Source of the DNA: Psammoneis japonica
Taxonomy: Eukaryota
DNA: 61,331 nt
Reading direction: 5' to 3'
Assembly (NCBI GenBank): GCA_008632985.1
Contig: QPGO01000311.1
Span: forward strand, 1 to 61,331
In this document: positions 3,237-55,050 of the stretch, piece by piece
Layout: every line of letters starts with the position of its first letter
Numbering within the stretch: position 1 is the stretch's first letter
Position numbers and translations under genes: made by a program
Notes under the pieces: model-generated
The model's input: only the letters and a program-made list of their open reading frames with translations
What the model was told of the DNA's origin: nothing
Database searches by the model: none

Positions 3237-3269
3237 NNNNNNNNNNNNNNNNNNNNNNNNNNNNNNNNN
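3237..3269. other. Assembly gap (N run) next to a poly-C tract
   Basis: Ns in sequence. Confidence 1.
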
Positions 3270-5861: not shown

Positions 5862-6092
5862 CCTCCAGCCAGCGCAGCGCAGCTGTTGGCTAAAAAATGT
5901 CTGCCCATCAGTGGTTTTGGGGGTTTTGCTTGTGCATTTTTCATTTTTACGTACGAAAAAGACGACTCTGTCTGTCCAGCGTTCACCGAATCTGGCAAAC
6001 CCCCCAAACGCACAGATTGACAGGCTCTTTCAGTACAAATTCTACGTACACAAGTTTCTCTGGCCAGCTGGCTGGAGAGGTCCCCCACATTG
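5862..6092. mobile_element. Degenerate tandem copy of the MITE at 6110-6322
   Basis: Aligns along its length with 6110-6322 (CCAGCCAGC...GGGGGTTTTGC...GTCCAGCGTTCACC...CAGCTGGCTGGAGA) but carries short insertions. Confidence 0.8.
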
Positions 6093-6109
6093 GAAGATCC
6101 ACATCACCA

Positions 6110-6322
6110 CATTGGGGGAAGTCTCCAGCCAGCTGCTGGCTGAAAAAAGTCTGCTCGTCAGTGCGTTTGGGGGTTTTGCAAGTACAATTTTTACGTACGC
6201 AAAAGAAGACGAGTCTGTCCAGCGTTCACCAAATCCCCTAACGCACAGATCGACAGACTTTTTCAGTACAATTTCTACACAAAATTCTTCAGCCAGCAGC
6301 TGGCTGGAGACTTCCCCCAACA
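6110..6322. mobile_element. MITE with ~33-bp terminal inverted repeats, probably Tc1/mariner type (TA target)
   Basis: TTGGGGGAAGTCTCCAGCCAGCTGCTGGCTGAA at the left end is the inverse of TTCAGCCAGCAGCTGGCTGGAGACTTCCCCCAA at the right end. A related copy lies at 39245-39457. Confidence 0.85.
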
Positions 6323-6424
6323 TCACACATCACCCATCAACATCACACAAACTAGTATCTAGAGTTTCCCTAAACCAATAAACGAAGGAAATCTCAACCG
6401 ACAAACGTCAATAATACCTGTACA

Positions 6425-7687: not shown

Positions 7688-7807
7688 AATTTAGATAATT
7701 TAAAAAACAATGCAACAATAATGATAATAAGTGCTTGCGAAGCTTTCGTTATGCCTAGCAATTATTGTAGTACCCATGCGGTTTCGGTGCCATAGGGATC
7801 GTCGCAT

Positions 7808-10800
7808 CTAGAGATTCGACCACATGAAGTGTAGCAGATAATTCATAAAGGCTTGTGCGGCGCGACTTCGAATACCATCACGCGTATTGCCATGCGCCTT
7901 TGAGAGAACTCTACAGTCAGCCAAGCTCCCTTCTTTATTGATTTGAAAGGCTAAGAATACGTCGTGAGCCTTGAAATAGAAAACGTAATGCGAAATCTTG
8001 TCTTTATCATCCGAAAACAGCCAACAAGGTTCAAACGGAGTTTGCTTGCTCATTGATACACAGCAAGAGGTCCAGTCAATGCAAGTATCATTGTTTTTGT
8101 CGATCAAAAGTGATCCTAGCCGCGGGTCGACTTTTGCCAGTGACTCGTGGTCTACCAATGCACAGAAATGCTCGTAAAGCGCCCGGTTCGAAATACGATT
8201 GTCATTTTTCAATTTACCAGAGAAATAACTCCACAGTTTATCTCGTCGGATTTTTTCCGCCACAGCCAAAAGCGCAGTCTTTGCTATTCGAGCGCTTTCA
8301 ATTCTTACCCAATCGTAAATGGGCAGAGCGTAAAGAGAGTCATCCCGCCGCACCTGATGCTCAAGACTCTCGCCGCCATTTGTACACAAAATTATCGCTT
8401 CCAAAGCTTGACTCTCTCCAGGAGCGTCGGTCAAAAAGCAGAATGCTAGAAAAAAGGAGAAACCGGCGACAAAAGTAAGTTTCGATTCCATCCCTTCAAC
8501 TCCACACAAACGACGGCATCAAACGTCAAACTCACACCGGGTCTTGAAGACACTCAGGGTCTCGTTATAACAAACCACATTTTCGTCGCACTGAAAGAAT
8601 CCGAAAGCACCAGCATTGGCTTTCAAGTGGCCAAGCAAAGTCGGAGCATCAAACAGCGATATCAAGTCGCTTTTGTAAGATGAAAGCACCAGCCTGGCTT
8701 TGAACAGCCTCCAACTGACTCCCGATGGTAACCTGCCAAAACGAAGCAAAGATTGAGCAACGGAAAATAAAATGGCTCATGGCAGACCTGGTCCATTTGA
8801 CGTACCGTCTCTGAATACCCGTCGTGAATCTTGACATTGTCTGACGCATCAAACATCCTATATCCGGCTGTATCTCTCTCTTACTCGCTAGATGTTCCAA
8901 GTAGGAAGCGACAAAAGAGAATACCTCGCCCCCAAGGTCCAAAGCTCCCTATCACCGAAGAAAAGAAACAGCAGTCGGCGAAGCCTGAATGAGATACTGT
9001 AGGATGGAAGAGACGAATCGCAAGACTGTCTTCAGCGGAAAACTTACGTTCTTTCCTGAAGCGTACGCATCTATGACATGAATTTGTCGTTCAACGCGTA
9101 CGCTGTCTCTTCTTCGTTTCGGCTTCTTGGAGTCGGTACACGGAAGGGTTACAACCCAGCTGTTTAACTGCACCACAGGTTTTCGAGGCCTTTCCCAGTC
9201 ACGATAGAATGTAGATATTGCTAAGACAAGAATATGGCGAAAGCTTCGTGATCTCCGGTGTTCATTCCAGAGATATACACATCTCGGCGAGGCTGGCGAC
9301 GGACTAAGCCCATCTTCAGTTGTTTTCGCACCTCGCAACTGTAAAGGTAGAAAGCCTTTATTCTCAATCAGGTTTCGAGCGATCGATTTACTAGCCATCT
9401 TCAAAATGTGAGGCGGCAATGGTAGCAGCTCACAAGCAGCACTCCTGTGAAACGTCGACTGCGTTAACACAAACTGCAGCATCGGAGAGGACAACTTGAA
9501 GCCATTGTCATTCCACCAACCGCTGCTGAGCAACTGAAGCAATACTTCTACTCTTGAAGACAGCGATGACGACGAAGAGCCCATAACCGCGTGACGGATT
9601 CTCTCGTAGTCATTGAAGAACTCTACAAGGGCGGGATCATCTTTCTTGATTTCTGGCTTCTGCTGAAGAGCTACATCAGCGGATCCTTTGGTTCTCGTAA
9701 GTTGCCCGGTTCTAGACCGTGACGTCTGGGCTTTTACATAATTCTTTTGACTTTTACCAACCGGCCCTGGACCTTGAGCACTGCCTCTGAAACGACTAGC
9801 ACTTGCCCGAAGTCGTGACGCAGCCATAGCTTGCATTGCTGCTCCTTCTACAGACTTCCCAATCAGCTTCGGTCGTCGTATAGGCTTTGGATGGATTGTT
9901 TTGGGTGCGTCTCTTGCACTGGCTGTGGTCTTCGTTTGTGTCGTATCCGAGGGAGCAGTCTCGACCTTCGTTTCGGGTTCGCCGTCGACAGAAGACGTTT
10001 TGGGCCGCTTTTCAATTAATCGTCCGATCGGAGGTGAGAGCGGACCTAAGCAACGAAGCTGAGTTTTCTGTAAAGTATGACTTTCAATATGACCATACGT
10101 TTCATCAATCTCTGTAATTCGTGACGTGACACTGTGCAAAAAGGAAAAGAAAGTAGATCAACAACCTAACTGACCCGACAAAATGGGAAGACGGGAAATA
10201 AATTACTTTCACTTACTGCTTCAGCCTTGACGGTTCCCAATTATACGTGAAAAGCAAGCGCCGCCCCCGGGAGACAACCAAGACGAATGCCAGTGAGCGC
10301 CAAAAGGCGGGAGGACGCGCCTTCTTCAAAGCCAGCATAGCCTCTGCAAAGGCCCCAGACTTTCTGTCATTCGATATACCTTCGCCAATGGTCACCTCCC
10401 GAAACAAAAGGGATTGTAATTGCGGGGGTGGGACACTCTCATTTTCCTGCAAATACCGGTGAAAACAGTAGAAGCAAATATAGATGGGACAGTCGATCTG
10501 CGCATCCCGTAGTGGCGTTGAGCGATTATGTTGAATTGGTCGCACATACGAGACACTGCCCTGCGTCTCCCTGATAAATCGCACAGGGACCGGATCTTGA
10601 TTTTCCAGCGTTCGCACAATTGTAAGCCCAGGTAGATCAATCAAAGACTCCCACGCAGCCTTCTTTTCGTTCAAGAGAGGAGGCAAGAGGCATTTCTCTA
10701 AGAGCTCAAGGGTCAGTTTAGCCAATGACGACGCCTGAATTATCCCGCTACGAACGAACCGCTGAATTGCCGGATGCGGAAGACTATAGGACGACTGCAG

Positions 10801-13800
10801 CACGCTTGTCAGCCAAGGGAGCCCGATAACGATTCCATCAAGTTTCGCATACGAATCGAGAGAAAGCCCTTCAACCAAAGGCTCTCCAAGGAGTGCTCGA
10901 GTGTCGCCAACAGCGTTTGTTAGCAATCCTGTTTGTGATTTTTCGATGTGGCGCTCAATTGACCAAGCTAAAAGAACTTGGTTCAAAGATCTGCAAAAAA
11001 AAAACGAATCGAAAACGGCTATTTGAACAACAGGCAATATACCGAACAGAGCAAGATAGCTTCGAAACCTTACAGCTCAATCCACCGATGAAGCAAAACT
11101 CGATCTAAAGCGGTGCTGACTATCCTAACAAGGACTCTCGAGGCATTCTGGCGGTTGCCGCCGTCTCTCCTTATACGAAGGTCGCCGGTTGCGACAGAGC
11201 AAGTGCCTGAATTACTCTGCTTCGAAATCTGGCCAACTTCTGACATTCTTTTGATTGTCGAACCATCAGAATCAATAAGAGAAACCTCAATGAGAGCAAT
11301 GCCGTTCCCAATTTGTCGGGCGTATCCGGATCCTCTCTCGGTCAGTGTTGAAACTGCCTGAAGGGTGGGATCAAGGGGTGATGGGGAATTATTAAAGAAG
11401 AAAGAGAATTCATCGGCATCAAAGTCTACAGCGCCCGTGTCGTTCTCATCAAAATTTGCGTGAGAACTGATGAGTTCAGAGGGAGTAATTTCGTGTTTTG
11501 GTGCCTCGTCTTCTGTCGCCTCATGCAAGAGGTGAAAAAATGTAGATCCACATAAATTTTGACGAAGGTAGACCAATACCATCAATGGGTCGTCCACGGA
11601 AGAAGGAAATTCGTATGCTCGCTCCCTGTGATCTTGCGCTGCGGTCCGGACATCGTTGAGGTCACCCCACTTTTCCTCGAAGCCCTTCACAAACTGCAAG
11701 TCTGCCGATTTCCAATTGAACAGCGGGTTCTTGGTCAGCACGGATGACAAAGCGTCGATTGCAATTGACACAATCTTCTTTTGTAACAGCCTCCGTAGCT
11801 GCTCAGTAACCGAGGGACCTGGTTGCTGCACGCCATACACGAGCAGATCAACGAAACTACCACCGTCCTCGACGGAGCTCTCGAGCTGCATGTAAAATAT
11901 TGCATCCGACTCATCCTTATAAACGAAAATGTCCGGGCGATTCGAAACTGCGAACCTGTCCAGTACTTCTCCTTCCAGCTTTTGTATCACTTTGCTTGCC
12001 GTGCATCGGTGATAGAGCTCGAAACGAGTCCGGAACTGAACAGGGCAGCAAAAATGCCCATCCGGGTGGCGTTGTGTTTCTTCCCGATATGATACTTCTT
12101 CCGCTCTAGCTTCAGAGATCAAAAACTTACTCACCGTTCGCGTACGATGGAGACTGGATGGGATCAAAATGTTGAGTTTTGAGTAGAGGTTGATTTTCAT
12201 ACTTTGCGACCGGACGATACCTTACCTTTGAAGCAAGAGTAGCTGATTTACTCGATGACACGTTTCAGTGATCGCTTCTCGTGTATGCATCAATACAGCC
12301 GAAGCTTCCCGCGCGCCCGAAGGATGATACACTTTAATAGAAATGCAACCCAACCGCATCTTGATAGACACTGAGCACCAAAATGACAACGTTGCGCCGT
12401 TGTCAGCTGACTCAAAAACATAAAATTCACTTTGGGATATAGTTTTCAGATGAAGTTTGGTGTTCCTTTGGAGCTCTGCACTCAGCAAGGAGAAGCTCTC
12501 GTCCACCTCAGCCTCGCTGCCAGCTGGGGCGGACGCATCGACCATCGCGTCCCTTCGGGGAACATAGAAATGGATCGTACAAACCGAAGAATCAATGTTG
12601 TGAGCTTTCCGTAGGCACGCTTTGACGGAATTGAGATCCGAGTCCGCTATGTCGAATCCCAAGTACCTGGACCGTTCCAGATATTCTTCAGCGACATATG
12701 CATTGAGACGGGAACGCAACTTCTCAACAAGAGAAAAATGAGAGCCAAAACGTGTGAATGATTCGACGGATGCCGGGATATCACTTCCCTGACTACGAAA
12801 CAACGAAACATGCGCAGCAAGCGTGGAGACATTTTCTACAGACGCGATTCTTCCCAAAGATGCATCTTCGCCATCCAATGTAAATTTCACAAAGAGTGGA
12901 GGCTGAACTGAAGGGGCGACACGCCTTTCGTTGGAATCCAATGACATGTGTCGACCTTGATTCCGATACGACCCTTCTTCTTCATACACTGACGCCGTGT
13001 CATTTTCTGACTCGTCATCAAATATGTCCAGATCCATGTTTCCGAGATCATCTGTAGCAACAAGCATCTGCTCAACGATATCTTCTCCGTGATAAAAGAG
13101 AAAGAAATCGACTCCTGGAATGCTACTGCACAATTCAGAGATGACCTGAAGGAGCCTTGACGTAGAGCTTTGGCCTTCCGCGAGTTCACCCTGCATCTCG
13201 TTACAAACAGACACCGACGTTGCTGGAACAAAATCGCAATACCCCAACAAAAACTGAAAATCATCGGGATGCAACGTCATACTAGTAGGTAGCGATTCGT
13301 TTCTCAATGCCAAATAAGCTGCCTTAGCGTAGTTCTCCCCATGCACTGCTTCGAGTCTATCTGCAAACTCTGATACGCAAAGGTATTCGCTGATGTGATC
13401 CACGCTATCGTCGTCAATGGAAGCATCGCCTGCATAGTATAGGTCACTTATCCCAATGGTAAAGAAACTCATATCTCGATAGCTATATGATTGGTCAACA
13501 CGGATAACCAGCGACAGATGCCCAATGCTCATCGTATCGCTGTCGTGTTTAATAACAAACCAAATGCCTGGTTCGACTCCATCAATCTTAACGTCGGAAC
13601 CAACAGAGAGCTTTTCGACAGACACACCGGCGGCAGGAGATAGAATCAGGTCTGTGGTTAATTCCACTAGTACATCGTTCGCTGAGCCACTGTCACCCTG
13701 AAAGCACCTTAGCTTTCTTGTTTGTCGACAAGAGTACACAAGAAGACGCCTCAAACTAGCCTCATGGTATTCAAGTGGAATGGTCGCATCGACCTCGTGA

Positions 13801-24843: not shown

Positions 24844-25311
24844 CCCTTCAACCACCGGACTCCCTTACGTCACAAATATAGTAAATGAAGTAATTTCAGA
24901 TATGGATAATATTAAGTTCGCGCGATTTTGTTTTGGAACGCGCATTCGCCGAAAATCCCGGGGAACCCTTTTTGAAATTTAGAAAGTTCAATGTCGACTT
25001 TTAACACCGGGTTTTTTGCAAGCTACATCTATGAATAGAGAGGAACTAAATGTCAACCTTTAACAATGGAGGTTATCATGAATTACTATCGCAAATAGAC
25101 CAACAATACCACACCCTTGGAGCAAATCTCCACCGGTGGAGATTTGCTCCCAATAAGTAAATGCACGTGGTATACTTTACGTAGACTCTACGCGACATGA
25201 CATTTTTATACTATGTTCATTATATGGGTATAAAGTTGCATGACACGTCACACATCCTTAAGTAGAGCAAATCTCCACCCGTGGAGATTTGCTCCCCTGG
25301 TGGTTGAAGGG
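24844..25311. mobile_element. piggyBac-type MITE, unmutated copy A
   Basis: TTAA target duplication at 24840-24843 and 25312-25315; TIR CCCTTCAACCACC / GGTGGTTGAAGGG; internal palindromes at 25119-25150 and 25265-25294. Confidence 0.92.
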
Positions 25312-31749: not shown

Positions 31750-33290
31750 CAACGCCCCCGGAAAAAACGAATTTGTGTTCTTCTTTCTACTTCTTTCTCA
31801 TTCCTGGCGGCTTGCAGTTTCTGGAAATGACAGTGGTGGGGTGGCCCTGATTGTTCACAACAAGGTTCTTGTGCTGTTCACTGAAAAGAGAACTGAGTGC
31901 AAACAACTCTGTTGCATCTGCCCAGCTTGGTGGCTGCTGCAACAGCGCTCCTTGCAGCCAAGAGCAAAAGCAGCTTGCTTCATCAAACCAATGGCCAATT
32001 TTTGGCTGCGCGGCAATGTTGCCAACCAAGCCCTGACAACAAGCGTGGCCACACAGCTGCGCTGAAAAAAAACACCTGTGCTGTGACCAAGATTGCAGCA
32101 GCGGACATTGCTCCACACACCAGCTTCGTCAACTTGTCTCACACACCACAGAGTTCTTTTTAACCCTTCAACCACTGAACTTGAGCAAATCTCTGTGGGT
32201 GGAGATTTGCTTGCTTGCATCACAAACACAGCAAATGGAGCAATTTAAGACATGCACAACATTTTGTTCGCACGATTTTGTTTTGGAGCGCGCATTTGCC
32301 GAAAATCTGAGGGAACCCTTTTTGCAATTTAGAAAGTTCAATTGAAAAAATTTGTGAACAGAGAGGAGCCAAATCTCAACCTTCAACAATGCAGGTTGTC
32401 ATGAATTGCCCCATCACAAACAGAGGAATGACACCACACCCTTGGAGCAAATCTCCGCCGGCGGACATTTGCCCCCAACAAGCAAGTGCACATGGCATGC
32501 TTCGCACAGATTGTGCATGATGTGATGTTTTCATGCTGTGTGCATTGCACTGTTGCAAAAGTGGAGATTTGCTCCCCTGGTGGTTGAAGGGTCAAAGTTT
32601 CTGAAAGTTTGCCATGTGCCGCCGCAGGTCAGGCGCCAGTTGGAGCAGAGATGTTGGTGTTTTCAAGAACTCCCAATGCTTGGGTCATGTGTGTAGAACT
32701 GAACAAATTCAACAACTGTTGTGACCATCACGGGACAGTTTGGTGACATTTTGGTGCTCTGGTGCACCAAAATTTTTGGCAGAAATTAAGTGACAAATGG
32801 CATGGCCTGATGAAATGGGGGGGCCAAGCAACAAGAGCAGAACATGACAAGCATTGGAATGCAGAGGAGTGTGAAAGTGAGACCAAAGCAGCAGCACAGC
32901 AGCAGGAAAAGTGGAGCAAAAGTTGCTCACAGCAGAGAAAACAGAAAAGCTGCTGTGGTGTGCACTGAGCACACTCCAGCGCAACAAGTGGAGGGTGCAA
33001 AGACACAGCGCCACCACGGGACTGGGTGGCCAGGTGCTTGCCACCCCTGCTCAAAAGCGCTGTCCACTGAACTGGACTCTGGGGCAGGAGAGACACTTTG
33101 CTCTTAAAAAAAAATGTTGGCACTCTGGCGGCACAGCCTCTTCTTTGACACTGCATCCCACCTGTGTTGTGCTGTGCAGAGACACGAAGCAGCTGACAGC
33201 GCAGCAGCCAGCAACACTCCTCATTGTCAATGTTGCTCAGCTGATTTGAGAGGTGCATGTCAACAGGTTGAAGGTTGATGCCCGCATTTT
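31750..33290. other. TpA-depleted domain 3, containing piggyBac MITE copy B
   Basis: TA is nearly absent; survivors are mostly in TTTA/TTAA/TAAA contexts. Confidence 0.9.
32164..32591. mobile_element. piggyBac-type MITE, hypermutated copy B
   Basis: TTAA|CCCTTCAACCAC...GGTGGTTGAAGGG|TCAA; collinear with 24844-25311. Confidence 0.92.
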
Positions 33291-37232: not shown

Positions 37233-38369
37233 CAAGTGTATCTCATTGCTTCCGAACTTTATCAACGCCCGAGAATTACTTTTGTAGCTCTCCTGGGACC
37301 CAAGCCCAGCGATCAAAATCCCTGCAGTCTCCTCCCATGACTTCTTTCATACTTGAGGCCTCGTTGTTGGCAGGGATGAAGCTCCCTACTTTGAGAGCTT
37401 CACATTATGGGTTCTTCCGGGTGTACGAGTATTTCCGCATCGGTTTGTCATGCTGGTCGCGTTTCCTTCACACTGGTACAAATTTCAGGGGTTTGTTGTG
37501 AAAGTAGTTTTTGAGTTGCTCCTATATTACGCCACGATGAGAAGACCTCTTTGCATCATGGATGTGATGTCACTCAAGAGACTTCTGGTCCTGTGTTGTC
37601 TATACTCTAAAAGCCGCGGAGATAATTACTGTATCCTTCCCGCCCCACTCATGTCGTAGGAAAAGCCGGGGCGCAAAACGCAGCGGTAAAGACTAACGGT
37701 TGCCTCGATAGAAAAGAGAGTGTTGCGGGAGTATAGTGAACAAATGCGAACGAAATTCATTTTAGACGACTACATTGAGTGGAACACTGCAACGTTGGAA
37801 AAAAATTCTTCCACCCGCCTACGCTCTAGAAAACGTTGATTCATCAGGGAAAAAGGTGCCCAGTGGACACGCGACAAAAACGTACAAGATGCAAGACTAC
37901 ACTACTCGGCTCTCCCAAGCTCTTGTATTTATGAGTCGGCGTGTCGATGGTCACTACAAGAGGAATCTAGGAAAGAAAAAGAGGGGATGGGCGGCGATTG
38001 ACTTGTTGACTGATTCCTACGGATGGAGTGATGAATATTGGCATGTTTGCGGCGGGACTTAAGGCGTGAGCTCCTTATGGAGAAGGAATATAAGCAAGGT
38101 TGGGAGACAGAGGCAAGGTGCTACGAATAGAAGCCAATATCTACTCTTAAGTGTCTACAACAAGAAGAAGTACAAGGTGACTGGAAGGGTATAATCCAAT
38201 CCGATGTACACACAGTTCTCGCTCGACTCATTCTTCGAGGAAGGCTCCTTCTCTGGTTTTTGCTTTTGGTGCAAGCTTTCTTGAGCGACGCAGAACTACA
38301 GTCGCGCGTGGAATGAATCGATGAACATACAAAGCACTCGGGACAAGCACATGGAATCCAATTCATCTC

Positions 38370-39187
38370 TTATAGGACAGTTTCCTCCTCGATTGATGGC
38401 TCGATGATTCCAAGATACTTCTTGTATCCCGCAATGCGCCTCGAGAGCGTTTCACACTGACGGTGTACTACATCTCCCGCCTCCATGGAAAGATCAATGG
38501 CTTGTTGCTCAATCACCTTGGGCCATTTGTGCCAATGGTCATTATCCACGAAGAGCAGTGCTTGCATGGCATCCATGGTTTCCTCTTGCGGAATCGCTGC
38601 TACAAACTTAATGCCACGACGGATTTGAATGGCGTGACGAGCCGAAGCCAAGGTGGCTTCACGTTGCTTGGCGTCTTGAGCCGCCGCGGCCTTGAGGCGG
38701 GAAACCTTGTCGCGTTTTCCCAAGAGCTCACTGTGTTGGAATTGAACCTAAGGTGACAAATGAAAAGGACGTCGTTAGCACATCGACACAATCAAAAGCA
38801 AGAATTGTAATTCGAAAAAAGTGTAGAGATGGAAGCTTCTCTCACGGCATCTCCACGTAGAAACAAGCGCTAATTCTACGCACGCACCTCCTGAGACAAC
38901 CGTTCCACACGGGCTTGCAGCTCTGCAATCTCGTTGGGATTGGATTGCTGCTGCAGCTTTTGTAGAGCTTGTTGAATCGAAAGTGCGTTCTTTTCCATTG
39001 CATCTCGTTCTTGTTGAATCAAGGACAGACGTTCCATGGCGAGTTGTTTTTTGCGGTGCTCTTCATCGCGGTTGCGACGGAGATTGGCCAAAATGCCGTG
39101 GAGCTTTTCGACAATGTCCTCCTTTTGCTGAGACGTTGTCTGCGCAGTGGTGAGAGGAGCCGAACAGAGAACGCTGCTTGTCTTCAT
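38370..39187 (-). CDS. Uncharacterised coiled-coil protein; exons 39187-38888 and 38747-38370
   Basis: The intron GTGCGT...CCTTAG joins ORFs 38876-39235 and 38370-38723 in frame; heptad-like E/Q/L/K-rich sequence. Confidence 0.7.
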
Positions 39188-39244
39188 GGTTGCTTGCTTG
39201 TTGCTTTTGATGTTGTGAGCAACATCCAACAACACGAAGCGCCA

Positions 39245-39457
39245 TGTTGGGGGACGTCTTCGGAAGTGAGACTGTCGAAGAAAGTTGCGTAGAATTTGTG
39301 CTAAAACAGTCTGTCAATCAGTGCGATTGGGTGTTTGGGACCTCTGGACAGATCACACGTGTTTTCTTGTGCGTGCAAATTGCACTGGAAAAAACCCCAA
39401 ATGCACTGGCGATCAGACCGCCTTTGACGATCTCACTTCCAAAGACGCCCCCCAATG
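39245..39457. mobile_element. MITE related to 6110-6322, in opposite orientation
   Basis: TIR TGTTGGGGGACGTCTTCGGAAGTGAGA / TCTCACTTCCAAAGACGCCCCCCAATG; the interior aligns with the reverse complement of 6110-6322. Confidence 0.8.
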
Positions 39458-39599
39458 TGCGAACGAACGTAGAAGTGTCGTACGTGGAATTGTGCAGAAC
39501 TTGTGCAACGTCAAAAATTCAAACTCCTGGTGTTAATTTCATGTAGAATTGCACGCAAAAAATCCAGCACGCACCCTCACGATTACGAAACAGCGCCAA

Positions 39600-42480
39600 C
39601 AACCGCGACATCACCATGAGAATCAGCAACAACAGCATCTCGTCCAACTCAATGGGTTTGAACAGTTCCCTTTGGGATCAGACGCTGTCTGCATGATGAC
39701 AGGTGCATCACAAATGAAAGCGTTCCTCCAGTGGCAACAACAAACAACTGCTTTGCAACAAGAGCAAGAAGGAGCTTGATGCCCCAGCATGGCAGAACGC
39801 AGAACCGCAGCATGCCTGTCAACAGCAAGCGCCATGCCACCCCAACAAATGACAGTGCTGTCACACACAACAGTGCAGTGGCCCCAAAATCTCACGCGGA
39901 TCATGTGCGACAGCAGCACACCACGCTGAGACTCTGCTGCTTTGCAGCCAAAATCCTGTCACACACAACAGCCAGCGTGCATTTGCCAGAAGTGGCTCGT
40001 CCCAAACAGCAACACGATCCCAAGAAGGCAAAATCTGCTCAACAAGAAATGCAGGCCAGTGCCGCAGAAACGTTGTCCATCAAAGAAAACTTCTCAAACA
40101 ATCCCGTCGCTGGCAGCAACGGCACGCCGGAAGCTTGCTCTGCACTTGTCAATGATTCAGATCTGGATGCAAACTCTCTTGAGAATCACCATGATGACAA
40201 CAGCAAGGAGTTGTTCTGGCACTTTTGAACTCGCAAAACAACAACAAAAACAGCAATGTCTCTGTCGCTGTTGAGCAAGGAGGACAAAGACATGAACCTG
40301 GCAGAGTTGCAACAAGAATTGAAGTCCATGCAGTCGGCTCTGCAAGCAAGTCAAGACGAGAATGCATCACCGCAAGCCAAAAATGCACATCTTGTTGAAA
40401 TGTTCCTGTCAATGTCACAAAAGGAAAACAAGGTTCTTCACGAGCAGTGTCCGTCATGGCAAGACCAGTCAAATCGACACAAGCAAGAATTTGCAAGAAT
40501 GGCTCCAGAGCATGGAATTTCCATGGCAGAAACAACACCAACCACTGTTGTGCAGTCAGCAACTGATGCTGAGCCACTCACCATTGCCGCTGCCAAGATT
40601 GCTCCATCACCATGGTTGCACTGCAAAACTCCTCAAAAAGCACTCCAGCCACCAGACAACAATGTTGCTGCAAGCAAAACAAAAGATGGCACTGCAAAAC
40701 ATCCCCTTGTCTCATCCTTCATTTCACCTGTCCTCTTTCAGCCTGTGTGTTGTGTCATTTTTACGAGGTTTTGCATGGGAATTCAGAAAAATTTTGGTGG
40801 GGCTAAAGTCCCGGTGGGGCCAAAGTGGCATCTTTTGGATGCTGATCACTGACCACATCCACCCTTCTCCAACACTGCCCAGCCTTTCATCCAGTGTGCT
40901 TCTGCACAAAAGTCATCGCAACTGGCCCACTGAGAATGGACAGGTTTTTGGGGTCAGTGACATTTTCAGTTGCACTTGACATTGGGCATTGGAGTCAATT
41001 GTTGTTGTTGTTGAGCACAAAGCAAAATGGCTTTGCAGCAAAAAGTCTTCCAATCATCATGCTCAGTCTTTTCTCCATTTTGTGGTGACTTTCGGCACCA
41101 CTTAATTTGTCACACAGCAGCATTGCAATGAGAACGGTTGATCTGCCCCACTTGCAACAAAAACAATGATGAAAGCCTTTTAAAAAGAATCTGTGTTTTT
41201 CTCAACCCACACCATGAGCTTTGATCACAAGTGCGAGCATTGGTGGTGCGAGTGCGACAAGGCAGAACAATCGGAGAATGACTCTTTCTCGTGTGCAAGT
41301 GTCGATGATGACAAAAACAGCACTCAAGACAGCACCGAGTGCACAAATTTGCATGATGATGCCAATGAGTCAGAAGGAGAGGTTGGCTCCCCTCCTTAAA
41401 AAATTCCAACAACAACAGTTGCCCTGACATGGAGATTGCCACTGGCTGCTTCAACTGATTTGGAGGATGCAACAGACATGATGAACACAGACAATGACCA
41501 TTTGTGCAGAATTTTCTCCAGCATTGCTGCTGCCAGCACCACCAGCAATGGCACTGCCACCGTCCACACGAAGGATGGTGAAGGTTCTCAAACCCAGAAC
41601 AGGGCTGCCGATGGTGCCTTTGCTTGTGCCCCATTGGAGACTTGTCTCGGGAAAAGCACTGCTGGCAGCATGACAACTTTGTTGCTGATCTCCTGGAAGT
41701 CTGTGGAACAAAGCCTTTCAAAACCTTTTGTGCTGAACACAGTCTTGTGAGTCCTTCATTTCAGCTCAATCCCCACACTTGTGTGGGAAAAGCAGCCTCC
41801 TGTGATTGTTTTGCAAAAGCCTGCAAGAAATTGCCTGACTTGGCCTTGCCACAAGTTGCACTCCATGGAACTGATGAAAAGCATTTGGCAGACATTTTTA
41901 ACAGGACGGATTGGACTGAAAGAAATGCAGGAGGCAAGCCTGTGGAAGAATGGGGGAATGCTTTTCTGCAGATCCAAGCATCTCAACTGCCCACAGCAGA
42001 AACACATGCTCCTGGAGTGGATGAAAAGATGTTGGTCCATTTGGTCATTCATCTACTTTCCTGTCCTGCTTCCAAAACAAAAGATCCCGCTGTCCCCAGC
42101 TGCCCACCACCACATCCATCATGACGCTGTGCCTGCAATGGAGCATCAGATGCCACTTGGAGTGTTGTCATGCCGCCGTGTCGAAGCAGATGCTTTGAGG
42201 TGTGCCAACAACATGCACGCCAAACTCAAGGATCTTACGGCAAAGATTCTTCACATCGAGCACAGCAGGCCAGATCTTTCATGACGAGCTGTTCTTGGCC
42301 TCGGACATGTGCAAAAAGAATCAACAATGTTTGAGCAAAGTTTCCAAGGCGGATGTTGCTGCATTTCTTGCAAACCAAAACTGTGACGCCGACGTTGTCT
42401 CTTTCTGCTTTCCCGGACTGCCCGAGCCTCTTTTGGCTGCCAACGAAAATCAGATTGTCAACGTTGATGCACTCGAGAAA
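39600..42480. other. TpA-depleted domain 5 (pseudogene relics)
   Basis: TA is nearly absent and returns gradually after ~42480. Confidence 0.9.
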
Positions 42481-42558
42481 GATTTGTACCAGAGCAAGCT
42501 GGAACTTGCGCAACAACACAGTCGCAACCATCCGACAACGACTGATCGAGATGGTTGA
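41120..42558 (+). pseudogene. PARP catalytic-domain-like gene relic
   Basis: PQVALHGTDEKHLADIF, then after a frameshift GLD*KKCRRQACGRMGECFSADPSISTAHS...KMLVHLVI. This matches the PARP signature HGT...GLD...QAYG.GEYF...S..YS once TG/CA are reverted to TA or CG. Confidence 0.75.
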
Positions 42559-43093
42559 CCAAGTTTTAGCAGCAGAGGTACAGAGGTGCTCGGATTTGGG
42601 GGTTCTCGACTACCATCAGCTTTTCAATCCCCTTGATCCTGACTACATGGTTTTTCGTTCAAACTTCTAGCTCTATCCGCTCGTTCCCCTCAAAATTATG
42701 ATCGATTGTTGTTGTTTCGGTGTTGATTACTACGGCAAGGTATTCTACCATATAGCAAGCTTCTGCGAGGCGTTCCCACGCTTTTTCATCGCGGGGCCTT
42801 TATGCTTCACAACGATGCAACCGTACGAGTGTCCATTGATGACCTAATATAACGATGGACCTATTGATACTGTTGACGAACTGTAGAGTTGTGTAGTTTT
42901 GGCGTGGAGCTGATGCATCATACTGTTCATGATGCTTCCTGGTACCGATTTGGTTGATTGCTCTGCAACACCTCCTGCAACTTCACTTTCCAACAGACCT
43001 AATCATATATATTTGTAGAAAGCCAAGCCACGGTATTAGATGTAATGAATACAGAGGCAGTAGTGCGGCAGTAGACATTCTTTGGACAGCGCG

Positions 43094-44134
43094 TCATTCC
43101 GTTTTAGGGACGGCTGCGGCGGCTTTTACAGACTGAACGTGCCACTTTTCATGCTGATGGATGATGAAGGGTGACACACATGCCCTCATTTCATCGAGTC
43201 CACCCTCAAACACCCATAGTTTGAGTAGGCGTTGCGATAGGAAGGGGACTCCGTACAGACAGTAGCGCTCCGTCCGCGGATCGGCACCGTCTAACCACAC
43301 CCCTTTCGGTGACGCCATTTCGACAAAGTTGAACCAAGAGCTATGCTTGTGTTCAAAGGATGAGTCATGGAAGGAGGGCGAAGACAGTACTTTTGTGCTC
43401 ATTTCCGAAACGTTACTCAGTGTCCAACCTACTGGTTCGACTACCGGTACCGAGAGCTTGAACAGATGAACGCGTTTCTTCTTGCCCGTAGAATACCCAG
43501 ATGCAATGATCGTAGTGGTTTGCCAGTCATCGTGAAGTGATACAGATGGATCATATCCGATCAGACCCTTCAGCTGCGAAATATACAGCCTAGCCACCAT
43601 CACCTTTCGCACGCCATGGGTCTCTACAATGTCATACAATTCCTTGGCATTAACCTTCAACTGCCCACTTGGAAAAATGTTGTTGGCTCTGAGGATTTTG
43701 TCGAGTCCCTCATCATCTAGTGCGAGCGCTCGATAGACAGTCATACGACCCAGGTATTTGGCAAAGTTCCGAAAGGCAATTTTTGCCGAAGCAATTTCAC
43801 CCACATCGGCAACTGTGTTGCACCAATCCAAAAACTTCCGCCATCGTGTTGCCACGCCTGGCCAGTTTAAGGCACCCAAAAGATTGCTTAGGCCCGCTTT
43901 CTCAAAAGAGTCTATCATGAGTGCTGCCTCTTCCCCACCATAGTCACGCGTGAGCGATTCCAGGCTGGTGGAGAGAGGTCGACGCTGGATCATCCATTCG
44001 ATCTCCTGATCGGATACCTCATTGTCATTTTCATTATCGGAGTCTGAGTTACTTCTTTCTTGGACCACTCTCACGCTCCTGGGAACCTGTAACTTGTCCT
44101 CATTCCGGCTGTGTCCAAACGATCTGTTTCCCAT
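43094..44134 (-). CDS. Uncharacterised protein with possible R-S-E ADP-ribosyltransferase-like motifs
   Basis: Intact ORF of normal composition (the ORF track extends it to 44266). TVYRALAL, PSVSLH, HLFKLSVP and TERY occur in the order expected for an ART fold. Confidence 0.5.
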   Translation of the reverse strand: MGNRSFGHSRNEDKLQVPRSVRVVQERSNSDSDNENDNEVSDQEIEWMIQRRPLSTSLESLTRDYGGEEAALMIDSFEKAGLSNLLGALNWPGVATRWRKFLDWCNTVADVGEIASAKIAFRNFAKYLGRMTVYRALALDDEGLDKILRANNIFPSGQLKVNAKELYDIVETHGVRKVMVARLYISQLKGLIGYDPSVSLHDDWQTTTIIASGYSTGKKKRVHLFKLSVPVVEPVGWTLSNVSEMSTKVLSSPSFHDSSFEHKHSSWFNFVEMASPKGVWLDGADPRTERYCLYGVPFLSQRLLKLWVFEGGLDEMRACVSPFIIHQHEKWHVQSVKAAAAVPKTE

Positions 44135-45316
44135 GATAGAGTTTAACGATGCTGTTGTTTCGAGACAGCATTGTAGGGATCTATGTATGTTGTGACGATT
44201 TCCAGATTTATGCGATTCCGTCGTCCACGACTTGAGCACGGCGGATCTGTTACGCGCATCGCGCATCGAACGTGACTGGCGCTCGTGGATATCTGAAAAC
44301 GCTCATTCTCGAGAACCCCCCCATCCATTTTCGAGAATGCCTCTCTTCCATTTTCGAAAATGTGGAGCTTGCGCTCCCGAGCAATCCGGTCCACACAAAG
44401 TTTGTGTCGAACACCATGAACAATGCATCGTCTCAATCACATGGTGCGTTGTTCGAACGTGATGCACTTCATCGCATCAAGTTGAAAGCGGCCAGGCGAG
44501 CCTGACACGAACAACTTCCAAGATGCTGACACCAGAACAACTCCATCACATCGAATGCCTCCTCTCTCATTGTGAGTCTGGCAGTGCTCAGCTGGACTCA
44601 ACATGAAAGAATGGAGATGCAAGCACCGTGAATGGAGCCAAACATCAAAAAAATGTTTCATGACAGATTGATGATGTGTCGGAAAGAAGCCAAGGTTCTC
44701 CCGCTTTGACATCATGTTGCAAGCTCATGAGACCAAAGGTTGACACCGCCATTTTGCTGGTGCAACATTCTCCCATTGACATCATCATTCTGCCAGCACA
44801 ACATTCTCCCATTTGTCAGAAAATCACTTGTTGGAGTGACAATCAGAAGTGCAAAAAAAATGGGTCATGGCGAGGCAACGCAGAACCTCAGTTCTGATCT
44901 CTTGTGTTGCGCCAGGCAACAGGCCAACACATTTCTCACAGCAATTTGGCAATTCAGGATCCACCCACAGAGATGAAGTGAACTGTGGTTGAAAAGTGCG
45001 TGTGATTTGAGACAAAATAAAAAAAATGGCATGGCTTCTTCGGCACCACATTTGCGTGTGCGTGGACGAGACACTCAGTCGGCATGTTGCTTGCTCGCAG
45101 TGCTTGTGTTTGTGCACAAACCAAAGTCTGCAAAGCGATCATGTGGCTGATGGTGTGTTCCAGCTTTTCCAATTGCTTTGTCCTGAGATGACTCTCCCTT
45201 TGCTCTTTTGTGACATTTCTTGATGAGTTCTTGGGAAAGCTTCCAGTCAATCTGATGCATGGGATGTTGTGGTTTGAACAAATTCAGAACCATGACAAAG
45301 CAACTGGAATGATTTC

Positions 45317-45730
45317 GGTCAATGTCATGCAATGACCAGGCAGCAGAGGTCATGTCTGATCCAAGCTCCAAAGCCAGGTTGAGCACACTGTCTTGGCAGT
45401 GAGGAACGTCAGCTCTGCATGGCAATGACACCTGCAACGGTGTGCTTGGAACACATTTCGGTCAATGTCATGCAATGGCCAGGCAGCAGATGTCATGTCT
45501 GACCCAAGCTCCAAAGCCAGCACAACCACATTGTCTTGGCAGTGAGGAATGTCAGCTCTGCAAGACAATGAAACCTGCAACAGCACTTGGAGCACATTTT
45601 GGTCAATGTCACGCGATGACCAGGCGGCAGCGGAGGTCATGTCTGACCCAAGCTCCAAAACACCAGGTTGACCACATTGTCTTGGCAGTGAGGTCAGCTC
45701 TGCAAGGCAATGAAACCTGCAATGGCACTC
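45317..45730. repeat. ~142-bp tandem repeat, three copies
   Basis: GGTCAATGTCA..CAGGCAGCAG..GTCATGTCTGA.CCAAGCTCCAAA..GTCTTGGCAGTGAGG starts at 45317, 45460 and 45601. Confidence 0.92.
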
Positions 45731-46897
45731 AGGACACAACATGACAGTGGACAACATGTGTTTGTCATTGCTGCATGGACAGCCAACCAATGTTGTCAAT
45801 CAGCTTTTCCTTGGAGGAATTGTTGTCGAAGCAGGTTGCATTCACCTCTTCAAAAAATTGAAGCAACATCAAACATGTTTTTTTCCTTGAAAGCCTTTTC
45901 CTTCAACAACACCTTTGACAAACACACTTTGTCAAGACATGTCTTGACAGAGCATGTGAAAGCATTGCAACTGGGCATTTCAGCTGGGGCACTGGCAGAA
46001 GACAAAGATGACTCTGCAAGCTCGCCAGAGCAATCTGACAAAGGGGCAGAGGTTGAGGCCCTGCTGCAAGACCTGAGACATGGAAGACCCAGTGCAGTGG
46101 GACACGGGACTGCAACTGTGGCAATTCCTGCAAGCATGGTTGCTTCATTCTTGAGATGACCGTGAGTGGTTGTGCACATGAGGAGATGGGGACACCATGA
46201 GGGGGCATTCTTCTCTGGGTGTCCTGGAGAAAGAAGCTCTGGTCTTGTGACCAACAGGGCCAGAGCTTCTGGAGTGCAGTCATTCCAAACAAGAACTTGT
46301 GCTGCCAGAAGACACCGGGCAATGTCATGACTGGGAACGTCCATGCTGATGAGACCCAGTGACTGATCTTGCTCTTGCTGACAACCAGACACAGACCAAC
46401 AACTGTGCCAACTCCGTCTGAGATGCCAAGAGCTGGAGCAAGATCAGTGCCTTGACCTAGACTGAGAACAAGAGGAAGAGCAAGACCGATGCCTTGACAT
46501 CAACCAAGGGCAACAGGGATGTGTGCAGCAGCAAGACTGTGACCAGGACCTTGACTGGGACCTTGACCTGGAATTCAAGCAAGAAGCATGTGACAAAGAA
46601 CGTGACCTGGGTGTGCTGCAACAAAGTTGTGAACAACCCCTGGTGAGACAACTGCCGGCAGAGGGAGCAGGAGAAGCTTCCCTGGAAGACATGCTCTTTG
46701 TTGGGCAGCCCTTGCCCCTCGAATGCTGCGTTTGCTTCTTGTTGAATGACGACACAGAAGGCAGGGCGTGCACAGGCACCCACTGCACTGGCGCTGGTGC
46801 TGAGAGCAGCGCACATTGCAAAAACGTCACAGGATGTGCAGGCTGCAAGGGCATGGACAGAGCACAACATTGTGCCTGCATCAATGGTGATGGAGTG

Positions 46898-47185
46898 ACA
46901 GGCTGCAATGACGTGGAAGGAGCACAATGATTTGGCTGCAACAATCACAACGGAGCACCAGGCTGCAACAAGGTGGAAGGAGCACAATGTTGTGACTGCA
47001 ATGACGTGGAAGGAGCACAATGATTTGGCTGCAACAATGTCAATGGAGAGGCAGGCTGCAATGATGTGGAAGGAGCACAATGATTTGGCTGCAACAACGG
47101 CGATGGAGCAGCAGGCTGCAACAAGGCAGAAGGAGCACAATGATTGAGCTGCAACAATGGCAACAGAGCGGCAGGCTGCAACAGC
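46898..47185. repeat. Short coding-type tandem repeat (GGCTGCAA..GGAAGGAGCACAATGATTTGGCTGCAACAA; units of ~33-57 bp)
   Basis: About five recurrences of GAAGGAGCACAATG; reads GCNDVEGAQ*FGCNN in the frame of ORF 46523-46930. Confidence 0.85.
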
Positions 47186-49819
47186 ATGGACGGAGCAAGA
47201 TTGGATGGATTTCTTGATGGTGGAAATTGACCACTTGGATGAGAAAGGGAGGGGGACTGATCACTGCTTTGCAGAAGAGCCACTGTGCCACAATGCACAA
47301 CGTGATTCTTGAGGGACCAAGCAATTGGGTGATCTCCAAGAATGTCCACAATGTCCACAAGGAAGTGAACAATGAGGACAATGCATGGGAGTGTCTTTGT
47401 GGCAAAGAGGAGGACTTGTCTGTTGACTTGAGCAATGTGAGGAAGAGTGTGGTGAGATGTTTTGACCTCTTGTCCAAGGAGGAGCACCGCCATTGCCTCT
47501 CTCACAAGATGCATGGTGCAAGAAAGGGGGTGGATGAACAAATGAGGATGCTGTTGACACAGATGGGTGGTGCTGACAACAAGGCTGGCAATGGAGTGAG
47601 AAAACAAATGCAACCAAATGCAGCTGATGTTGCTTTCTCATTTGCACTTGATTCTCAGATGTGGGCATGACCATTGATTCTCAAAAAACAATGGCAACAC
47701 TGCTTTTAAAAATGACTGTTTTGAGGGATGCTGATTTTTAAGAATCCACATGTTTGAAATTCCATGCAACAGATCCTCAAAAATGTTGAACAAATGCTGA
47801 CACACTGTCTTGAGTGTTGACCATTGTCTGCCATTGGCAAATGGCCCACTGTTGCCACAAGCAAAAAACCGGTCTGTCCTCCACCTTTTGGCATCTGTGC
47901 AACAGTTGATTTTGTCTCCAAAATCGATTGGTTCTTCACTGTGCAGTGCTTCTTACATCTTCTGACATTGTCAATTGATGTGCTCCTGTGCCTGTGTTCA
48001 CCAGGTTCATGGTTCTAAACACAGTTGCTGCCATCACAAGAAGGGCCTTTTTCACTCCAAGAGGACAGACTGGTTGTCAGTGGAATTCTGCATGGCAATG
48101 TGCTGAGAAATTTACACAGTTTGTTTTTGCATCGGATGTCAAATGCCTCGCCATTGTCTCTCACATGAACGGCATCATGGCAAGTTCATGACACACACTC
48201 CAATCAAACAATGTGGGTGCACAAGCTCTCATTCATTGTTGTTTTGCCTTGTTGCTCGCATTCTGCATGCAGGCATTTGTCACGAATTAGAAATGCACAA
48301 CGTAAAAATCATCCATCAATGAGGACAATTGATGACAAAAAATCTGTGCAAATTCTCAAACCGCAGATCTTTTTAGAAAATGACGATGTGCCATCTTTGG
48401 CCCCCAATTGTGCCATGATGCAACACTCTTTTATCCTGCTGTTTTCACAAACAGATCTTTGTTGACCTTCTGACCGATGCCACAGCAGATGGGTTTTGCA
48501 TGTGAAATGATGGGAAGCCACTCTTAGAGTGGTTTTGTGTGCAGTTTTTTGCTTGTAGAGTCAATCACAAAATGAGACCCGGCACAAACAATTGAGACCT
48601 GCTTGGGGCATTGTGCAAAAATGTGCAGAATTTTCTGTTGGCCAAAAAAAGTCATGAGGTGGTGTTTGAAACAGCACAACAAGAGCACTCCATTGCTGCC
48701 ATTTTTGCCCACCCAGAAAAATTCTTGGCCCTTGCCGAGCACATCTGATCCAGCACTGAAATCACACACATTTCTGCATGGGTCTTAAATCACCACACCT
48801 GCCTGTCAACCTTGGCTTGTTGGACATTTTGGTTCATGCACTGAAACTCAAGAACTCTGCACAGATTTGAAAAAAGGAGAGGATTTTTTTGTGACGAGTT
48901 CAATGAGTTGTTTCATGTCCAGGCTTGATTTCATGAAATGCTGCACAGACATTGTGGCATCTGCACAGACCCAGATCTTAGGTGGGTCTCAGTGTGTGAT
49001 TGACTCTGACCCAGTGGTCCCAGTGGTGCACACAAGAACTCACAATTTTAGAACCTGTTGATGCTGTTCAACACATTTCTTCTTTGTTGTCCAATTCTCA
49101 GCCATTGCAGCAGCATTTGTTTGCTTCATCAGAGCCAATGCACTGTGATGCACAGACACCTGAAATGGGCATTGCAAATGGCACAATGGCGTCATTGCGA
49201 TTGATCAATTTTTGTGGCAAGCACAATGTTGGTCCCATGGTTGCTTGCAAAATTGCTGACTTCTTTGCATGTGCACCCATTTGTGAACATGAACTGAGAG
49301 TGCTCTTGTGAACCAGGGCAGTGATCCGTGGGATGCATTGTTTGGATGTGGCATGTTTGGCCCCACAGGAATGTAATGTGTTGGCTGAGCATGCAAATGT
49401 TTGAGTGATTGTGTGATGACAAACATCATTGGATGCATGACACGTCAATGAGAGATGGATGTCTGAATGCACTTGTCATCAGTTTTGCATTGATTGGTCA
49501 AGTGTCACCGAAAAACTCTACTTCTGACATCATGACGTTTTTTTGCTAAATGGCTCGAAATCTACTCAATCTACTTCTGCTTACCTGAAAACCACTTGTT
49601 AGTCAGAAAACGAGCTCCTGCTGCAAGAAAATCTGGGATGGTCATGCGCGACATCGCGCGAATAAGACTCTATGCAGAACAGGTTCTTCGTGCTTTTTCC
49701 ACCTTTGGGGGTGACGTGCAGACTGCACTAAGATTACCTGTAGAAATCCAGAAGACTTCAGTAAAAAATCTACTTCATTTTTTTCATAAAATGGCCAAAA
49801 TCTACTTTACCCACCCGTC

Positions 49820-51807
<1,988 letters not shown>

Positions 51808-52014
51808 TCATTGAACACACGCATCCTACCTCTGTCCACCAGCGCCACATCCACCACGTCCGGAAGTGCGGTAAGAACCACAGCTGTGCCAAGAGAGTCG
51901 AATGAAGAGTCCTCCGTACAGTGTGTTCCATAATCCGCCGGACTTGGCTACCAACAAGCTGGAATTTTAGAATGATGAATTGTAGAGTAATTACGTGGAC
52001 TGAAACCAACTGGT

Positions 52015-53959: not shown

Positions 53960-55050
53960 GACCATTTTACCGGTGTCAACATGTCGAGCATCACAAGGCT
54001 AGGCAGGAAAGAGGTGTTGAAGTGTCTCAAGCACAAGCGGGGGAAGCAGGTCTCTTGGGAGGTCAAACTGCACCTCACACCAACATGTGTCCCCGAAGAA
54101 GATGTCATCAGATTTCCTCTGAACCACAAGTTGGAGGGTGTCAGATTTTAAATTGTGACATCTGCGGACATGATGGTGTGAGATTGTGCAGTTTGACTGT
54201 CGCAAGAATCGATGTCCCCTCTTGATGATGTTTCGATGCATGCATGGTTTGCTGGTCTTGCAAAGAGATGTCATCATCATCCAGCTTCTAGCCTGTTCCA
54301 GCTCCAGGTGATGCACACAGGCTCGACTCCCATCGCTGGCCCATTTTTGCATTCAGCACAACAAACTCCTTCAAAATCAGGTTTTTGCCAAATCAAAGGG
54401 TGAGTGCACACTTTGCATGTGTTTTCTGGTGTGCACTCACCTTTCGACGTTCGAAAAGATCAAAATTGAAGAAGTTCGCTGCGCTGAACTGGCGCAGATG
54501 ATCGGCCTCTCGCATGATGGATTTCTCATCACCTGGGGCTGGAACAGGCCTTCTCCAAGTTGCGCTTTGTGTCAAGTCCCGGGAAAATCCGCTCATGAGC
54601 GGAAATTTCGTCGCCAGCTTTGGCTGCGGATGAGTGTGGTGGTTGTGCAGAAAACGAGGAAAGCTCTTGGAATTTTGGAGAAATTGTCCAAATCAAATTG
54701 ACAATGAGCAAAGTGAGCTCCAAGTTGGGTGTTGTTTGTGAAATGGGGGGTGAGGCAATGGCTGCCTCGTGAAGGTTCTGACTGCTGGGTGCTCCCAAGC
54801 AAGGCTGCCGGGGTTCACGGCAGCAAGCAGATGGCGCTCCACCCTCAGCAGCGGCGCTTGGTGTGATGCACAACAAATTCAAGACACGCTCTAGCCTGGG
54901 GTGTGGGGCTGCGGGGCGTGTTACACTCGGAGCGCGGTAAATTTGCCAGCCAATGAACACATGAATGATCGCCAAAGGCCTCAGTTGAAGCACGCGCACA
55001 TCATTTTGACTTTGGTCCTTCATAATCGGACAACACAACATGCTGTCAAA
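53960..55050. other. TpA-depleted domain 7
   Basis: Few TA between the M17 peptidase and SERF genes; contains a MITE. Confidence 0.8.
54290..54550. mobile_element. Non-autonomous derivative (MITE) of the transposon at 1-3021
   Basis: TIR (A)GCCTGTTCCAGCTCCAGGTGATG / CATCACCTGGGGCTGGAACAGGCC with a 4-bp flanking duplication TTCT; the interior aligns with the reverse complement of ~2830-3021. Confidence 0.88.

Follow-up and report, generated by a model that had tools for sequence, protein, structure and literature searches.

A dead PARP-like gene within a TpA- and CpG-depleted, hypermutated domain of a Psammoneis japonica contig

The window analysed here, a stretch of 61,331 nt that covers positions 1 to 61,331 (forward strand) of the Psammoneis japonica contig QPGO01000311.1 (GCA_008632985.1), very probably carries a dead eukaryote-type PARP-like mono-ADP-ribosyl transferase gene inside a hypermutated domain depleted in the dinucleotides TpA and CpG. 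Judged by its sequence, the gene at 41666-42558, which perhaps began at an ATG at 41215, is a dead PARP-like copy. In the history that we propose, A:T to G:C transitions would have turned almost every TpA of a 3-kb domain into TpG or CpA, while in its central 2 kb C:G to T:A transitions would also have turned most CpG into TpG or CpA. Since all tyrosine codons contain TA, the TpA process would have replaced conserved Tyr residues by Cys or His, including both Tyr residues of the motif that binds nicotinamide adenine dinucleotide (NAD), and the CpG process would have made an invariant CGC codon for Arg into TGC for Cys. TpA editing also erases the stop codons TAA and TAG, so that the affected frames look open; what shuts the gene is an in-frame TGA together with three breaks of frame.

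That the locus belongs to a PARP-like family, as an earlier note on this DNA had proposed, is borne out by its relatives. A phmmer search with the raw read-through of 41908-42555 (TGA rendered as X) against 1.84 billion representative proteins returned 20 proteins at E<=1e-3, the best E values being 1e-13 and 4.7e-13. Most matched through the less damaged C-terminal third of the query, with P0008 and P0013 matching over residues 1-204. The PARP domain PF00644 is present in 15 of the 20, in 14 of them above the gathering score (26.7 bits), and is located upstream of the region aligned with the window; it was not found in P0003, P0004, P0009, P0016 and the repeat protein P0001. The last of these (4001 aa), which had the best E value, was dropped from the family profile, as it lacks a PARP domain and owes its match to repeats. 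The relatives match PF00644 over its first half alone, at profile positions 39-148 of 199. The family consensus reads ..VFHGT....IL..GLDPKKR.GQAYGPGEYFS.DP.VS.SYC...MLVF.VV.P...CP..YVVVP..EHQLPLG.. and downstream of it stands, once or repeatedly, the module KAKIIQ.I...D.A.E.Y......L....K.EIS.Y.H...D...V.FYFP.LP.P, for which no Pfam family scored above the gathering cut-off. Several relatives (e.g., P0007, P0008, P0017 and P0019) carry at least two copies of this conserved, helical C-terminal module. Against solved structures the family profile gave weak matches (E 4e-4 to 8e-3) to Tpt1/KptA, the PARP-like domain of ZAP, PARP16, PARP14 and PARP15; compared with these proteins and with PF00644, the family adds the C-terminal module and the window copy is broken. 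The family is thus a divergent PARP-like one, probably of the mono-ADP-ribosyl transferase kind.

In PARP proteins the His of the HGT/HGS motif belongs to the NAD site, the Tyr residues of YGxGxYF are part of the NAD-binding motif, and the third catalytic position is Glu in those members that make poly-ADP-ribose. At this third position the relatives vary (H, D, E or N before YVVV), and the window aligns there with gaps. The 27 contigs that encode relatives have an ordinary TA ratio (observed over expected, 0.36-0.87) and, with few exceptions, an ordinary CG ratio, indicating that the TA-free state is not a trait of the family. Neither phmmer nor a word-index protein search, which gave no matches with the C-terminal region, yielded a closer relative, and no metagenome locus surpassed P0002 in closeness to the window copy.

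A profile of 14 relatives, compared with all six frames of the whole window, identified a sole locus at 41666-42540, where the match is divided into four colinear pieces in three frames rather than forming a single open reading frame. The independent E values (i-E) at the locus were 8.3e-13, 1.6e-7 and 6.4e-22, every other match in the window having an i-E of 6. All pieces lie on the plus strand. Piece A (41666-41899, frame of 41120, profile positions 60-136, i-E 8.3e-13) ends in LHGT at 41862-41873, which aligns with the invariant FHGT of the relatives. Piece B (41899-42000, frame of 41122, profile positions 136-168) holds the motif block GLD..QAYGxGEYFS.DP.S.SY, altered by a TAA at 41899, a TGA at 41917, an Arg to Cys change (TGC, 41926), two Tyr to Cys changes (TGT at 41941 and TGC at 41959) and a Tyr to His change (CAC, 41992). 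Piece C (42051-42266, frame of 41121, profile positions 174-244, i-E 1.6e-7) contains the second half of the catalytic region, with ..AVPAMEHQMPLGVLSC.., and then a helix. Piece D (42271-42534, frame of 41122, profile positions 257-345) is the C-terminal module of the family and continues to a TGA stop at 42556-42558; its CG content is normal, TA is nearly absent, and conserved Tyr codons have become TGC (42310 and 42406). Searches by tblastn with single relatives gave the same colinear pieces, piece A being found by P0002, P0005, P0006 and P0013, and residues 162-210 of P0002 being 55% identical to piece C.

The 57 letters that the earlier note had quoted stand exactly at 41908-41964, where the frame of 41122 reads GLD*KKCRRQACGRMGECF. 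They had been placed downstream of LHGT, and both motifs are indeed present; however, LHGT is in the frame of 41120 and the GLD block in that of 41122, so that an unmentioned frame break separates them. This break falls at 41899, in or beside a T run that we read from the letters at 41895-41899, and leaves no room for an intron. Three frame breaks and two stop codons (TAA, 41899; TGA, 41917) make five places in total at which the homologous part is broken. Upstream, an ATG at 41215 opens a plus-strand frame (41215-41396, frame of 41121) that may represent the start of the gene, although the N-termini of the relatives are unconserved and lend it no homology support.

The pattern of substitutions was assessed over the 250 profile columns occupied by the window, in comparison with the 14 relatives. 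Tyr occurs once in the window against a mean of 8.3 in the relatives (range 4-13) and Arg seven times against 13.1 (8-21), while Cys occurs 15 times against 3.6 (2-5) and His 15 times against 7.9 (4-11). At the eight columns with Tyr in at least 5 of the 14 relatives, the window has Cys (TGT or TGC) five times, His (CAC) twice, Phe (TTT) once and Tyr never. The loss of conserved Tyr codons to Cys, inferred earlier from the quoted letters, is supported by these columns, seven of the eight now being TGY or CAY. A single TA>TG change separates both TGT at 41941 (Tyr in 11 of 14 relatives) and TGC at 41959 (the Tyr of GEYF, present in all 14) from a Tyr codon, and the Arg of KKR, likewise invariant among the 14, is TGC in the window. 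The sole surviving Tyr codon contains the TA at 42487.

The gene lies at the right-hand end of a domain at 39585-42566 in which only 9 TA are found in 2982 nt, with normal TA density on both sides; within 41120-42558 (1439 nt) there are 6. Nested inside it is a core at 40130-42090 with 27 CG in 1961 nt (1.4 per 100), flanked by TA-free shoulders with 4.4 CG per 100 nt (39585-40129) and 4.8 (42091-42566). In 1-kb windows from 39001 to 42000 the TA ratios are 0.11, 0.03 and 0.06 and the CG ratios 0.83, 0.36 and 0.25, with TG at 1.74-1.89 and CA at 1.52-1.64; in undepleted 1-kb windows TA is mostly ~0.4-0.8 (range 0.39-1.09) and CG ~0.7-1.4. CpG loss fades near 42090, while TpA loss ends abruptly at 42566: TA is back at 42567, 9 nt beyond the TGA stop, and is dense thereafter, with ~45 TA in the spacer from 42567 to 43072. 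In the last 300 nt of the gene CG is normal and yet Tyr has become Cys at 42310 and 42406 and at a weaker Tyr column at 42382. The earlier suggestion that TA reappears from about 42480 is correct for the one TA at 42487, but the real return is at 42567, beyond the stop, and in place of the gradient then envisaged at the domain edge there are two nested edges, that of CpG at ~42090 and that of TpA at 42566.

CG loss also trails TA loss at the edges of the domains 2963-5890, 44291-47706 and 54290-54891, although not in every domain. In these three and in 39585-42566, TA loss extends 250-500 nt past CG loss, and in the domain 54290-54891 TA is wholly absent and CG normal. That TA loss reaches beyond CG loss suggests two separable processes, or two ages.

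These letters do not depend on one assembly. An independent assembly of a public sequencing run, X1, produced a contig of 7506 nt (word depth 66.8) that spans window 39428-44000 and differs from it by four other letters and one inserted letter, none of them within 41666-42540; the run contains 95% of the words sampled from 38000-44000. The TA-free letters and the frame breaks are thus not slips of a single assembly. A second run, X2, is without cover over 39608-42622 and carries no evidential weight. Each of the four single-letter differences falls within the depleted domain, and three of them are CG in the X1 contig and TG or CA in the window (39542, 40205 and 41227), a small hint that CpG decay may still be polymorphic.

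The same changes are found in an unrelated pair of repeats in the window, one copy of which (24864-25221) lies in undepleted DNA and the other (32214-32546) in a depleted domain. The first copy contains 35 TA and 17 CG. The second has CA at 20 of these TA, TG at 10 and TA at 1, and CA or TG at 8 of the CG; the TG and CA of the undepleted copy are mostly unchanged. The two copies also differ by indels and other substitutions. As an ancestor without TA is implausible, the depleted copy is taken to be the changed one, and the change of TA and CG to TG and CA, which had been claimed from the PARP-like gene, is supported by this pair. Because one copy was struck and the other spared, homology alone is not the trigger.

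A further claim, that the process also reaches non-transposon genes, agrees with a fragment of a haem peroxidase at 51550-51918 (minus strand; PF00141, 35.6 bits against a cut-off of 27, profile positions 15-108 of 237). The depleted domain 49976-51581 has this fragment at its right edge, and the rest of the model is undetectable deeper in the TA-free DNA; the peroxidase is thus another non-transposon gene that decays where it enters a hypermutated domain. Low-TA segments as a whole cover ~16 kb of the 61 kb, or ~26% of the window.

Context-bound hypermutation has precedents against which the domain can be compared. In repeat-induced point mutation (RIP), known from ascomycete fungi, C changes to T at CpA, TpA rises, stop codons appear and both copies of a repeat are struck. 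The window resembles RIP in that context-bound transitions riddle local DNA and kill genes, in the manner of a genome defence; in contrast to RIP, TpA is nearly absent, CpA and TpG are in excess, TAA and TAG have been erased, and one copy of the repeat pair was spared. Hyper-editing by ADAR, which acts on double-stranded RNA, converts A to I and prefers a 5' U (discussed in Mettrop et al., bioRxiv 10.64898/2026.01.13.699255), shares with the window the change of A to G with T/U before the edited A. However, ADAR edits RNA, whereas the change in the window is fixed in DNA and affects both strands, TG and CA being both raised.

The TpA process itself is already in print, as the TpA to TpG/CpA hypermutation of Bigelowiella natans (Mettrop et al.), and the window locus is a fresh example of it; a literature search found no such process described beyond this preprint. 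According to its main text, 231 of 302 new mutations in mutation-accumulation lines of B. natans fell in integrated giant-virus and virophage regions, 230 of the 231 being A>G or T>C and all at TpA, at a rate of ~6e-7 per site per generation. There are said to be 124 TpA-depleted clusters in the ~95-Mb genome, some with host-like domains, and an ADAT2-like deaminase is the proposed enzyme. Measured against that account, the window is alike in that TpA changes to TpG/CpA only, that TpA loss is matched by gain of CpA and TpG, and that the clusters are sharp and of kb scale. It is also alike in the bases concerned (A>G or T>C at TpA), with 30 of 35 TA having become CA or TG in the repeat pair and 7 of 8 Tyr columns having become TGY or CAY. 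Under the cluster definition of the preprint (Rho TpA <=0.43 together with Rho CpA+TpG >=1.52 in three successive 1-kb windows), 39001-42000 counts as a cluster when read from the separate TG and CA ratios. The depletion differs in being near saturation here (9 TA in 3 kb) against 3.3% TpA in the insert described by the preprint, and in extent, ~26% of the window being low in TA as against 124 clusters across the ~95-Mb genome.

The family membership, the substitutions and the breaks are observations of the present analysis. As to their cause, we infer that the TpA changes came from locus-targeted DNA hypermutation as described for B. natans, probably based on an adenine deaminase, and that the CpG loss would reflect cytosine methylation of the same silenced domain.

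Several points weigh against this interpretation, and the details should be interpreted with these in mind. The membership in the PARP family rests on the relatives and not on the window's own translation: Pfam searches gave no PARP match with the three plus-strand frames of 41120-42558 at E<=10, with the plus-strand read-through of 38500-43000 at E<=1, or with stop-to-stop frames at E<=0.01. Among the 130 columns conserved in at least half of the relatives, the window is identical at 69 and differs at 61, and reverting TG/CA to TA/CG restores the consensus at 13 of these 61 mismatches, where seven mock dinucleotide rules restore 1-7, a control that is unmatched for opportunity in that TG and CA are the commonest dinucleotides here. 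The remaining 48 mismatches are unexplained by the TA/CG process, and with the three frame breaks still in place the expected recovery of the gene by reversion is not supported. The TGA at 41917, which had been read as a former Arg codon, falls on a column that is Pro in 13 of the 14 relatives. The direction of change in the repeat pair is argued rather than polarised by an outgroup, and run X1 may share its sample with the window, which would limit the independence of its confirmation. Compared with B. natans, moreover, the target here is a PARP-like gene without a viral hallmark rather than a viral insert, and the depletion has a nested CpG-poor core, whereas CpG (like PARP and pseudogene) is a term absent from the main text of the preprint.

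How the gene came to lie in such a domain admits more than one answer. It is possible, although we would not call it probable, that the PARP-like gene was foreign cargo, belonging to an integrated giant virus, a virophage or a transposon, and that it drew hypermutation for being foreign. The preprint associates the process with DNA of integrated giant viruses and virophages as well as with transposon domains, and the overall TA ratio of the window (0.42) is near that of its giant-virus insert (0.45). Genes are also densely packed in the window, with frames that are long and uninterrupted; a Pfam scan of 14 long frames gave no family for 7 of them, and a high-copy repeat adjoins the domain. Atlas look-ups gave generic PARP and M17 peptidase clusters only and no usable lineage; one of the nearest PARP clusters is mostly Nucleocytoviricota, which can serve as a lead only. 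Set against this, no viral or transposon Pfam domain was found in the plus-strand read-through of 38500-43000, and no credible hallmark of either kind when all depleted domains were scanned as 222 stop-to-stop frames (60 aa or longer), where Pfam matched only the peroxidase fragment, a coiled-coil (weakly) and, by chance, phage-Fil; since hypermutation hid the PARP domain itself from Pfam, such a blank is weak evidence. A pattern scan of the IMG/VR viral contigs with the family alignment likewise gave 0 relatives, and two long neighbouring frames were without matches there. In the contigs of full-architecture relatives that were examined (L002-L009 and L010), one long frame is accompanied by short flanks, resembling single-gene transcripts; this suits eukaryote transcripts and is still compatible with viruses.

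Somewhat less likely, in our estimation, is collateral damage, whereby a single-copy host gene would have been engulfed as silencing and editing spread from a neighbouring repeat. Such a repeat exists at the left border of the domain, where 208 nt at 39248-39455 reach a summed word depth of 5100-12431 compared with ~60-67 around them, with loose ends at 39247/39248 and 39454/39455. The locus itself sits on one 7.5-kb contig of ordinary word depth, the peroxidase is a second ordinary gene that runs into a depleted domain from its edge, and the mutation of one copy only of the repeat pair again speaks against homology as the sole trigger. However, the high-copy repeat retains TA and CG, the latter at a normal level, with 7 TA left from 39290 to 39584, and the heaviest CpG loss falls 1-3 kb away from the repeat and not beside it. 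The earlier view of a cellular gene that was a duplicate or a copy captured by a transposable element found no support in these data: the family profile gave no second copy in the six frames of the 61-kb window, the two protein searches gave no closer relative, the contig is single and of ordinary depth, and neither a transposon nor a viral Pfam domain was seen in the depleted domain.

Taken together, the nesting of the CpG core, the abrupt end of TpA loss beside the stop codon and the sparing of one repeat copy point to targeting by the state of the locus or its chromatin, or by a transcript, and not by homology. We put forward, as a speculative proposal to which we give a lower standing than to collateral damage, that editing targets individual transcription units and not viral or repeated DNA as such, and forms the outer layer of a two-layer silencing. 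A cytosine-methylated core would lose CpG slowly, and a zone of TpA-specific DNA adenine editing would reach ~0.5 kb beyond the core on both sides, ending here within 9 nt of the stop codon of the gene. Under such a proposal single-copy host-type genes could be destroyed, such as the PARP-like gene and the peroxidase at 51550-51918, while the other copy of a repeat is spared.

It is very improbable that the domain is an artefact in which modified bases of heterochromatic DNA were misread and the real DNA keeps its TA and CG: strictly context-bound transitions are what base-calling errors at modified bases can produce, but the word-based assembly of X1 reproduces 39428-44000 at ordinary depth, the repeat pair differs by indels and other substitutions as well, and the same mutations arose in Illumina-sequenced B. 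natans lines (Mettrop et al.). Hardly credible at all is a working gene of odd composition, TA-free by selection or rescued by recoding, for the long open-looking frames that might speak for it are a consequence of losing TAA and TAG, the homologous pieces are spread over three frames, Tyr and Arg residues that are otherwise invariant have gone, and relatives elsewhere have ordinary TA content.

Understood as a dead PARP-like gene in a hypermutated domain, the locus provides a codon-level read-out of TpA editing in a protein-coding gene, in which Tyr codons are lost and TAA and TAG stops erased; the codons ATA, TTA, CTA and GTA are also rewritten by such editing. Dead genes of this kind seem open in all six frames and escape domain searches, and in the annotation of such genomes relics will be missed and false long open reading frames called. 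To the process described in B. natans the locus and its surroundings add the nested CpG core, the edge at a stop codon, the spared repeat copy and the peroxidase entering another domain; the set of targets may exceed the viral DNA stressed in the main text of the preprint (Mettrop et al.). The overall TA ratio of the window resembles that of the giant-virus insert in the preprint, but its long intron-free frames and its density of depleted domains accord poorly with the host genome of B. natans. If the window is not from Bigelowiella, the process would here have shown itself for the first time in another organism.

Upstream of the PARP-like gene, the plus-strand frame at 39662-40849 (the frame of 41120) contains one TGA in 396 codons. 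Over bins 39700-40749 its stops number 1, compared with 5 and 9 for the remaining two frames of the plus strand, and it is probably a former coding frame, for which the word-index protein search gave no relatives and Pfam no family above the cut-off.

Further features of the depleted domains were noted. They contain overlapping stop-to-stop frames of 150-380 codons on both strands. The copies of the repeat pair bear palindromic hairpins (GGAGCAAATCTCCAC .. its complement), and GGAGCAAATCTCCAC has 10 matches in the window at up to 3 mismatches, compared with 2.3 expected. Two depleted domains share an inverted repeat (2780-3060 and 54250-54530), with 156 of 198 aligned positions identical and 27 of the 41 substitutions being transitions, including CA versus TG at the same step. 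Finally, a tandem array at 46817-47197, with a period of ~60 nt and 5 copies that are 61-76% alike, lies within a large depleted domain.

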